In this document: positions 9,390 through 14,741 of the stretch, one piece after another
Numbering within the stretch: the first letter of the stretch is position 1
Layout: the number at the start of each line of letters is the position of its first letter
Assembly: GCF_030384885.1 (NCBI RefSeq)
Contig: NZ_CP128613.1
Direction: 5' to 3' (one strand)
From: Escherichia coli
GTDB taxonomy: Bacteria > Pseudomonadota > Gammaproteobacteria > Enterobacterales > Enterobacteriaceae
DNA: 64,000 bases
Program-made: the position numbers and the translations under genes
The notes under the pieces: generated by a model
Database searches by the model: none
Told to the model about the DNA's origin: nothing
Seen by the model: the letters and a program-made list of their open reading frames with translations, nothing else

Positions 9390-9614
9390 AAAAGTCTCTG
9401 TGAATGTTTATTCAACTGATGTCTTTTAACCTAAACCACTTTCACGTTAGAAAGCAAGGGCTTTTTTATATATTTTATGGCGATGGATTTGTTTAATGAA
9501 TGAGCGGGGAAAGGAGAGGGCCAGGAGTGGCTACGTTAAAAAAGTAATCGTGAAAATATGTCTTTAAAACCCTCAAGAACATTGTGTTCTGTAACTAAAG
9601 TGGGCTTGGTTCCT

Positions 9615-9712
9615 GCCGGATGCGGCGTGAATGCCTTATCTGGTCTACAAATGTTGCCTAAATTCAATATATTGATGTTTTTGTAGGACTGATAAGCGGA
9701 GCGCATCAGGCA
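9615..9712. repeat. pair of REP elements (BIME-like)
   Basis: gccggatgcggcgtgaatgccttatctggtctaca and inverted copy tgtaggactgataagcggagcgcatcaggca in intergenic space. Confidence 0.55.
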
Positions 9713-9815
9713 ATTGTATATTTGCTAACAGTTTCGATTTCATTCATAGAATGAATTGTCAGTTTTGATACGCTAGCGTAGCCTTATAGATCTAAGGTGT
9801 ATCAGGAGATAACGG

Positions 9816-11615: not shown

Positions 11616-11881
11616 AGAAAAATTATTATGACAAGCCTCTCATTCTCTTGTCATTTCCCCCCCATTTAGGCACAATGCGCCGCTGTCAAAAAATGACTAA
11701 AAACCGACGTTTAATTAGCGTCGGTTATTTTTTGCTTCAAACCAATCATTCATACCAAGAGGCCGGGCTTCGTACCGGATAGATATTTACTAAAAATCGA
11801 CAGTTGTTGTCGCTGAGGAATCCAAAAAAATGGGGCAATTTTTTGCTTACGCGACGGTTATTACCGTAAAGGAGAATGACC

Positions 11882-13240
11882 ATGTCGCATAACGTTACTC
11901 CAAACACCTCTCGCGTGGAATTGCGTAAAACGCTTACGTTAGTTCCGGTTGTAATGATGGGTCTTGCCTATATGCAGCCGATGACGCTGTTTGATACATT
12001 TGGTATCGTTTCAGGCCTCACGGATGGTCATGTGCCGACAGCCTATGCGTTCGCATTGATTGCGATCCTGTTTACGGCTCTGAGCTACGGGAAGCTGGTT
12101 CGCCGCTATCCTTCTGCTGGCTCTGCATACACTTACGCCCAGAAATCCATTAGCCCGACCGTCGGCTTTATGGTGGGTTGGTCTTCTCTGCTCGACTATC
12201 TGTTCGCGCCGATGATCAACATTCTGCTGGCGAAAATCTATTTTGAAGCTCTGGTGCCTTCCATTCCATCGTGGATGTTTGTGGTGGCGCTGGTGGCCTT
12301 TATGACCGCCTTTAACCTGCGTAGTCTGAAATCCGTAGCGAACTTCAACACCGTCATCGTGGTGTTGCAGGTAGTGCTGATCGCGGTAATTCTGGGCATG
12401 GTAGTTTACGGCGTATTTGAAGGTGAAGGCGCTGGTACGCTGGCGAGCACTCGTCCGTTCTGGTCTGGTGATGCACATGTCATTCCGATGATCACTGGTG
12501 CGACGATTCTGTGCTTCTCCTTTACCGGCTTTGACGGCATCAGCAACTTGTCGGAAGAAACCAAAGATGCAGAGCGCGTGATCCCGCGTGCAATTTTCCT
12601 GACCGCGCTTATCGGTGGCATGATCTTCATCTTTGCAACTTACTTCCTGCAACTGTACTTCCCGGATATCTCTCGCTTTAAAGATCCGGATGCGTCACAG
12701 CCTGAAATCATGCTGTATGTTGCGGGTAAAGCGTTCCAGGTCGGCGCGCTGATCTTCTCCACCATTACCGTACTGGCGTCCGGTATGGCGGCGCACGCAG
12801 GCGTAGCGCGTCTGATGTACGTAATGGGTCGTGACGGCGTGTTCCCGAAAAGCTTCTTCGGTTATGTGCACCCGAAATGGCGTACTCCGGCAATGAACAT
12901 CATCCTGGTTGGCGCGATTGCCCTGCTGGCAATCAACTTTGACCTGGTAATGGCTACGGCGCTGATTAACTTTGGTGCGCTGGTGGCGTTCACCTTCGTT
13001 AACCTGTCGGTTATCTCGCAGTTCTGGATCCGTGAGAAGCGTAACAAGACGTTGAAAGATCACTTCCAGTATCTGTTCCTGCCGATGTGTGGTGCGCTGA
13101 CCGTTGGTGCGCTGTGGGTTAACCTGGAAGAAAGCTCAATGGTTCTGGGTTTGATCTGGGCGGCAATCGGTCTGATTTACTTGGCTTGTGTCACCAAGAG
13201 CTTCCGTAACCCGGTTCCGCAGTACGAAGACGTTGCATAA
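11882..13240 (+). CDS. plaP: APC-family putrescine importer
   Basis: ORF 11876..13240, start [11 protein letters not shown], 12-TM amino acid permease. Confidence 0.9.
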
Positions 13241-13280
13241 TCTTACAAGCCGGATGACATAATCATCCGGTAAATCTCAA

Positions 13281-13311
13281 AAAGCCGGAGTTTGTCGCTC
13301 CGGCTTTTTTG
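13281..13311. terminator. bidirectional terminator between convergent plaP and sbcB
   Basis: A-run, stem gccggag/ctccggc, T-run. Confidence 0.7.
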
Positions 13312-13313
13312 TT

Positions 13314-14741
13314 TCAGACGATCTCTTCCGCGTACTGCCAAAGCGCTTTTAACAGCGCCACTTTCTCTTTGTCATCGGCATATTGTTGTGCCAGCATCTG
13401 CAATTCATCAGCATAGCCCTGCAAAAACTCTGGCGTGAAAACCTGGCGGCGGTGCTCCAGCCAGCGTTGCTGCTCGGCATAATCCAGCGTCCCCGGGAAG
13501 TTGCGCGCCCGATAATTGAACAACAGCTTTTCAATCCGTTTATCAACAAAAGTGATATCCAGTGCCGGTAAATTACGCGGCTCGGTTTCCAGCACAATTT
13601 TCATTGCTGCACGATCGGCGTCACTGAAAAAGCCATTATAAAGCTGTGCATCCACGTTATCTGAAGGCGTAAACGGTTCGGCTTCGGCGAATATCGCCAC
13701 CACTTTTTCACGCACTTGCGGATTTTCACGCAGAATTTTCAGGTTATCGAGGCAATGCTGACGATTAATTCCCAGTCGGTCGGCATCTTCCGGGCGTAGC
13801 GTATTCGCCTGGGCCAGCACCGGACATTTATTGATATGCACCAGTTTAACCGGAACGGCGGCGTTATCGCCAAGATCGGCTTTTGCGGTATATAAACGCT
13901 CGCGCAATGTGTCGCTATCCAGCTCCAGTAATGGCGAAATGTCTCCTGCCAAATCCACCATAATTACGGCATTGCGATTTTCAGGATGCCACGCCAGCGG
14001 TGCCACCCAGCTGGTATTGCCACGCCATGCCCCAAACATTCCGGAAACGTGAACCAGGGGTTTCATCTGCGGAACATCAATCAACGCCATCAGTTTGTGT
14101 TTATTACGATGGGTAAAGAGATAATCAAACAGGCGTGGCTGACGCGTTTTTACCAGTTTCGCCATCGCAATAGTGGCGTACACATCAGCCATCGCATCGT
14201 GGGCGTTGCTATGTTCAATACCATTCGCTTTGGTTAAATGCTCAAGGCGAAAGCTCGGTAGACCGTCATCATTTTCAGGCCAGTTTATTCCTTCCGGGCG
14301 CAGGGCATAACAGGCACGCATAACATCCAGTAAATCCCAGCGCGAGTTATCATGCTGCCAGCTCCAGGCGTAAGGATCGTAGAAATTACGATAAAAAACG
14401 TTGCGTGTGACTTCGTCGTCGAAACGCACATTGTTGTAGCCCAGAATACAGGTCTTCGGTACGGTAAAAAGCGAGTGAATACGGGCGGCAAACGCGGCTT
14501 CGTTTTCTCCTTTCGCCCGTGCCTCCTGCGGGGTAATACCGGTAATTAATACTGCTTCAGGCTGGGGTAAATAGTCATCCGCGGGCTTGCAGTAAAAGAC
14601 TTCGGGTTCGCCGATGACATTGAATTCGTTATCAGTGCGAATGGCTGCGAACTGTGCAGGGCGATCTAACGCGGGGTGCGTTCCAAAGGTTTCGTAATCG
14701 TGAAACAAAAAGGTAGATTGTTGCTTACCGTCATTCATCAT
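13314..14741 (-). CDS. sbcB: exodeoxyribonuclease I
   Basis: ORF 13314..14789, start MMNDGKQQSTFLFHDYETFG (DEDDh exonuclease motif). Confidence 0.94.
   Translation of the reverse strand: MMNDGKQQSTFLFHDYETFGTHPALDRPAQFAAIRTDNEFNVIGEPEVFYCKPADDYLPQPEAVLITGITPQEARAKGENEAAFAARIHSLFTVPKTCILGYNNVRFDDEVTRNVFYRNFYDPYAWSWQHDNSRWDLLDVMRACYALRPEGINWPENDDGLPSFRLEHLTKANGIEHSNAHDAMADVYATIAMAKLVKTRQPRLFDYLFTHRNKHKLMALIDVPQMKPLVHVSGMFGAWRGNTSWVAPLAWHPENRNAVIMVDLAGDISPLLELDSDTLRERLYTAKADLGDNAAVPVKLVHINKCPVLAQANTLRPEDADRLGINRQHCLDNLKILRENPQVREKVVAIFAEAEPFTPSDNVDAQLYNGFFSDADRAAMKIVLETEPRNLPALDITFVDKRIEKLLFNYRARNFPGTLDYAEQQRWLEHRRQVFTPEFLQGYADELQMLAQQYADDKEKVALLKALWQYAEEIV

Follow-up and report, generated by a model that had tools for sequence, protein, structure and literature searches.

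In Escherichia coli, YeeE/TsuA and YeeD/TsuB form a route of thiosulfate uptake for which yeeD is required (PMC11073785). A delta-cysPUWA delta-yeeE double mutant did not grow on thiosulfate, and growth was lost only when cysPUWA was deleted as well (PMC11073785). In K-12 MG1655 the genes tsuA (yeeE, 1059 bp) and tsuB (yeeD, 228 bp) are located between plaP (yeeF) and sbcB, with a stop-to-stop distance of 1520 bp. To our knowledge, tsuAB has been studied only in K-12. We analyzed the same interval in a stretch of E. coli DNA of 64 kb, referred to here as the window, in which the convergent genes plaP and sbcB are separated by a short spacer that lacks tsuAB. With a probability of about 85%, we consider the window to carry a tsuAB-less haplotype that is one of two long-standing alternative states of this site, and neither a recent deletion nor an artefact. 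The feature is an ordinary and common gene-content polymorphism in a public annotated genome, and its importance for this particular window is very little.

Gene content of the plaP–sbcB junction

Both flanking genes are intact in the window. According to the open reading frames and the RefSeq annotation, plaP (11882-13240, plus strand) encodes a putrescine/proton symporter of 452 aa and ends with the stop codon TAA at 13238-13240. Its start is overlapped by yoeI, a small membrane-protein ORF (11830-11892, plus strand) which is taken from the RefSeq annotation of NZ_CP027579.1 (L002, 3031-3093, offset 8799). On the opposite strand sbcB (13314-14741, minus; ORF and RefSeq annotation) encodes exodeoxyribonuclease I with 475 aa and 99% amino acid identity to K-12, and the complement of its stop codon TGA is found as TCA at 13314-13316. 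The SbcB product matched the NCBIfam equivalog NF008746 (exodeoxyribonuclease I) with 816 bits. Neighbouring genes of the junction are those of DacD, SbmC, a LysR regulator (yeeY), yeeZ and hisG.

By sequence and ORF list, the spacer between the two stop codons comprises exactly 73 bp (13241-13313), in agreement with the roughly 70 bp of the original prediction. It contains no ORF, and a gene for a YeeE/YedE-family membrane protein is missing there. Moreover, tblastn searches of the whole 64-kb window with the K-12 proteins returned only chance matches for TsuA (E > 2) and only matches with E > 0.5 for the TusA-like TsuB. The proposal that this strain lacks the yeeD/yeeE module is thus supported at the locus. 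It had relied on a K-12 gene order with these genes between sbcB and plaP, and this order is correct, as tsuA and tsuB are found there in MG1655 and plaP and sbcB are not adjacent in the reference. Flanking genes and orientation are the same as in the K-12 interval, the PlaP proteins share one accession (WP_000019197.1), and in both cases a terminator core, CCGGAG...CTCCGG, with a T-run is located downstream of plaP. However, the window lacks a module of about 1.46 kb which in K-12-type genomes consists of the upstream or promoter region of tsuA with the motif ATAACC-N23-GGTTAT, tsuA, tsuB and a GC-rich hairpin, and whose site approximately corresponds to 13313/13314. Conversely, the window has an additional hairpin of 23 nt on the upstream side of the terminator.

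Over 3.1 kb around the junction, the window matched the chromosome of E. coli 2013C-4282 (NZ_CP027579.1) with 100% identity, and the RefSeq annotation of this record contains yoeI, plaP and sbcB and nothing between plaP and sbcB. The sole other complete genome with at least 99% identity at the locus was 2020CK-00188, which is likewise 100% identical across the 3.1 kb. PMC10100065 lists strain 2013C-4282 among the members of cryptic clade I, the sister lineage of E. coli sensu stricto, as stx1-positive and completely sequenced. The plaP DNA of the window is 96.8% identical to that of K-12 and, as the PlaP proteins are identical, all differences are synonymous. With a distance of 3.0-3.4% from every sampled allele of E. 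coli sensu stricto and from E. whittamii, the plaP DNA (11882-13240) is an outlier, which fits the cryptic clade I background of 2013C-4282. Thirteen plaP mismatches are clustered in one 150-bp bin at about 12400-12549. Elsewhere in the window, the yefM-yoeB toxin-antitoxin pair, which in K-12 is located between hisL and yeeZ (L001:288-939, 652 bp), is absent, and its position (9528-9739) is occupied by about 211 bp without similarity to the K-12 segment.

Hairpins and predicted terminator of the spacer

Folding of an 83-nt sequence with the spacer resulted in two hairpins on each strand, with -34 kcal/mol (z = -6.8) for the plus strand and -31.9 kcal/mol (z = -6.3) for the minus strand, and none of 200 shuffled sequences was as stable in either case. 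The fold supports the bidirectional terminator that had been predicted (13279-13313), but not the claim that it stands alone, as a second short hairpin is located at 13249-13271. This hairpin 1 is formed by a stem of 9 bp (GCCGGATGA / TCATCCGGT) and a loop of 5 nt. It is specific to the empty haplotype of Escherichia and missing both in K-12 and in the empty spacers of other genera, which carry different hairpins or REPs at its place. Hairpin 1 is REP-like and has the ends GCCGGAT...ATCCGGTAA in common with a true REP in the Kluyvera-like locus L046, but it comprises only 23 nt, whereas REP/BIME elements were defined as imperfect palindromes, about 35 nt in length, that have a head of the GCCGGATG type and belong to a family repeated elsewhere in the genome.

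As predicted from the fold, hairpin 2 is a textbook bidirectional intrinsic terminator. It consists of A5 (13279-13283), the stem GCCGGAG/CTCCGGC (13284-13290 / 13298-13304) and T6-G-TT (13305-13313). The core stem forms a stable GC-rich stem-loop that is directly followed by a U-tract on both strands, namely TTTTTTGTT on the plus strand (13305-13313), which reaches up to the sbcB stop codon, and TTTTT on the minus strand, the complement of A5. Similar to bidirectional Rho-independent terminators in general, the GC-rich 7-bp core stem is extended by A:U pairs and framed by an upstream A-run and a downstream T-run, and each strand reads as a hairpin and then a U-tract; nothing is unusual about this sequence-based prediction. 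With an A-tract on one side and a T-tract on the other, the structure would stop both convergent transcripts. A simple terminator pattern scan missed it and reported only a weak site inside sbcB, and an Rfam scan of 12800-13800 gave no match at E <= 1.

The terminator is conserved throughout the family. The K-12 terminator downstream of plaP, AAACCGGAG-16 nt-CTCCGGTTTTTTT, is homologous to that of the window, and homologues of the form AACCGGAG...CTCCGGTTTTTTT follow plaP in K-12 and in 70+ loci of Enterobacteriaceae, among which both haplotypes are represented. The family form comprises an A-run, (A/G)CCGGAG, a loop, CTCCGG(T/C) and a T-run, and it occurs in nearly every species, with or without tsuAB. 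We infer that the terminator may serve both convergent genes, which is supported by this family-wide conservation. As it follows plaP in both states, the variable unit lies between the terminator and the sbcB stop codon; in tsuAB-positive loci this unit comprises the conserved upstream region of tsuA, tsuA, tsuB and the GC-rich hairpin. The conserved terminator provides a clean landmark for haplotype comparison. The notion that the spacer is unrelated to both K-12 intergenic regions turned out to be wrong, since the comparison of several genera revealed the terminator core as homologous. Outside the shared core, the spacer does differ from both regions.

Upstream of tsuA, all tsuAB-positive genera carry the inverted repeat ATAACC-N23-GGTTAT followed by GAATAATTT (K-12, L001:4523-4557). 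It is a candidate binding site of a regulator, which may be a LysR-type protein.

Distribution of the two junction states

The locus was present in 5424 of 5426 complete E. coli genomes. A tsuAB segment was found in 4209 of the 5426, an intact empty junction in 782 and an empty junction with IS200C in 433. Since these counts add up to 5424, that is to all genomes holding the locus, the three classes are exhaustive and mutually exclusive. The sum also argues, on counts and at the sensitivity of megablast, against a relocated tsuAB in genomes with an empty junction. Moreover, tsuAB is a single-copy segment: per genome it occupies 1 place in the median and never more than 2. About 22% of the complete E. 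coli genomes are devoid of tsuAB, among them those of EPEC E2348/69, MS 200-1 and one strain with a name suggesting ST131. The empty junction, which is also found in E. whittamii, is not peculiar to the strain of the window, a point that was missing from the original prediction.

We compared nine empty spacers, those of the window, p4A, AVS0747, 30859_5#62, MS 200-1, E2348/69, PS_131_S11, ET201 and E. whittamii. All of them represent one 73-bp sequence with 0-4 substitutions. The junctions of E2348/69 (EPEC, B2), ST131-like strains and E. whittamii have the same spacer as the window with 1-4 substitutions and the same convergent arrangement, whereas the plaP DNA of the window differs from all of them by 3.0-3.4%. 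The window sbcB groups with E2348/69-like (B2-like) alleles at about 99%, and ET201 carries the empty junction on K-12/A16-like flanks. As every empty junction of Escherichia that we examined has this one spacer haplotype, although the flanks differ, the empty state had a single origin in the genus. A recombination of plaP in E. whittamii (96.8% identity to E. coli, compared with 91% for sbcB) was considered and is not compelling, because plaP evolves at about half the rate of sbcB in every genus comparison.

In the 433 genomes, IS200C (712 bp; L003:2015-2726) is inserted exactly at the position corresponding to 13313/13314, between the T-run of the terminator and the sbcB stop codon. It is a later insertion into the empty haplotype, and the window, in contrast, carries none. 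E. coli HH45 shows an independent internal deletion in a haplotype of the K-12 type, which left a tsuA fragment and a truncated tsuB (L004:3179-4031). In Escherichia sp. MOD1-EC7003 the 3' end of an ORF that by eye is a putative IS transposase lies about 55 bp from the sbcB stop codon (L005:7426-7709); as the contig ends in this putative IS beside sbcB, the genome is uninformative on the junction state. In O157:H7 EC4115 sbcB is one codon shorter, and the gene after it is that of a tyrosine integrase where other strains have dacD (L094:4868-4968); this suggests that a prophage or an island has inserted upstream of sbcB.

The empty junction likely entails the loss of TsuAB-dependent thiosulfate uptake, judged from gene content. 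Such a strain would rely on the CysPUWA sulfate/thiosulfate ABC transporter, provided that cysPUWA is present, and growth on thiosulfate would be lost only if CysPUWA were disabled too. As roughly one in five complete E. coli genomes lacks tsuAB, EPEC E2348/69 and ST131-like strains among them, uptake through TsuAB is not a species-wide trait.

At the family level we examined 80 Enterobacteriaceae loci among the SbcB-scan matches listed, and in addition K-12; no locus of E. albertii, E. fergusonii, E. marmotae, E. ruysiae or Salmonella was among the matches listed. Among these matches and K-12, tsuAB was present exactly at the plaP–sbcB site in 22 loci and absent from 51, and 8 were uninformative. 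In most of the 51 tsuAB-less loci among the matches listed, plaP and sbcB are directly convergent. Both junction states occur within Citrobacter and within Kosakonia. A neighbour-joining tree of SbcB, again of the matches listed, required at least 10 state changes, and the Fitch root state was ambiguous.

PlaP falls into two allele classes with about 97% and about 87% amino acid identity to E. coli (L007-L084). The classes cut across species in Citrobacter and Enterobacter, and PlaP distances do not track those of SbcB (r = 0.18).

Origin of the empty haplotype

The junction represents an old presence/absence polymorphism, and whichever state is ancestral, that of the window is inherited and not recent in the strain. 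One account of its direction takes tsuAB as ancestral. A single deletion in an Escherichia ancestor, or a single donor, would have produced the 73-bp haplotype, which was then retained as a polymorphism or reached clade I, clade II and B2-type E. coli through homologous recombination. The family-level data favour this account. The genes are found at the identical site in at least nine genera, and pairwise distances of TsuA and SbcB are correlated (Mantel r = 0.78, 0/5000 permutations). Between K-12 and other genera, DNA identities are 74-80% for tsuA and 76-81.5% for sbcB, and the divergence of tsuAB also matches that of dacD. The GC content of K-12 tsuA (50.4%) equals that of its flanks (sbcB, 50.1%). 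The module thus does not stand out from its flanks in DNA identity or GC content, TsuA distances track those of SbcB, and tsuAB has the properties of a native segment of long residence. Signs of an insertion or deletion of tsuAB by a mobile element, such as target-site duplications, terminal repeats or a neighbouring transposase or integrase gene, were not detected at the K-12 module, which has no flanking repeats. The single spacer haplotype on different flank backgrounds, including the K-12-like flanks of ET201, is also in line with an ancestral tsuAB, and the independent partial deletion of tsuA in HH45 indicates that loss does occur. Nevertheless, a deletion haplotype would need to have crossed or outlasted two or three lineage splits, and the ambiguous Fitch root lends the account no help. 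Moreover, we found no deletion scar, flanking direct repeats or microhomology at the empty junction. When the 73-bp spacer was compared with the 1520-bp K-12 segment for tsuAB remnants or microhomology, the sole match apart from chance 7- to 10-mers was a terminator arm of 14 nt that both have. Overall, we regard an ancestral tsuAB as a tentative explanation that comes close to an even chance.

The reverse direction is that the empty state is ancestral for E. coli, clade I and clade II, and that tsuAB returned to non-B2 E. coli through homologous recombination with another Escherichia-like donor. Here it is the distribution inside Escherichia that is favourable by parsimony, as clade II (E. 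whittamii), clade I (the window) and the B2 strain E2348/69 all have an empty junction. We take clade II as the outgroup of E. coli sensu stricto, clade I as its sister lineage and B2 as one of its early-branching groups, and on this assumption one gain of tsuAB is the most parsimonious solution. The empty state is also the majority state among the matches listed (51 of 73), and presumably sbcB adjoins yeeF in Salmonella LT2 as well, which we counted in favour of an ancestral empty site. However, E. coli tsuAB is as far from tsuAB of Citrobacter and Kluyvera as sbcB is from theirs, and a foreign signature is not visible. The diversity of tsuAB within E. coli (1.2-1.4%) is, moreover, similar to that of plaP, which also speaks against a regain. 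A regain of tsuAB is therefore a reasonable candidate, although we would give it somewhat less than an even chance. Under an old polymorphism of either direction, strains would then have received the empty haplotype by descent, or by homologous recombination in the conserved genes on its two sides.

A more far-reaching idea is that presence and absence of tsuAB at this fixed site form a trans-species polymorphism of ancient date in Enterobacteriaceae, which is maintained because selection changes direction with sulfur ecology (e.g. gut thiosulfate); the tsuAB-less allele would then be typical of E. whittamii, of cryptic clade I and of E. coli of the B2 type. We consider this doubtful. If true, TsuAB would mark lineages and be linked to a niche phenotype that can be tested. 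No publication that connects yeeE with phylogroup B2 emerged from a literature search.

An assembly artefact, or a tsuAB module relocated elsewhere in the genome, is very improbable. Such a reading could draw on the fact that the direct analysis of this genome covered the 64-kb window only, but the sequence comes from a complete chromosome record, 2020CK-00188 is 100% identical across the 3.1 kb, and the three junction classes sum exactly to the locus-holding genomes with tsuAB as a single-copy segment. A recent deletion of tsuAB specific to 2013C-4282, roughly what the original prediction implied, has nothing in its favour beyond the absence itself and is refuted almost beyond doubt: the identical junction is shared by 1215 further complete genomes and by E. 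whittamii, and outside the common terminator core the spacer is unlike either intergenic region of K-12.

The plaP–sbcB site is a recurrent spot of indels and insertions in Enterobacteriaceae, with tsuAB in some species, with IS200C in some E. coli and with an EF-G paralogue insert in Klebsiella and Raoultella. At the site of the Klebsiella/Raoultella type, the insert comprises about 3 kb (L030:7426-10434; also L033, L034, L051, L052, L063 and L064), and next to an ORF of 145 aa without Pfam match it encodes the EF-G paralogue of 700 aa.
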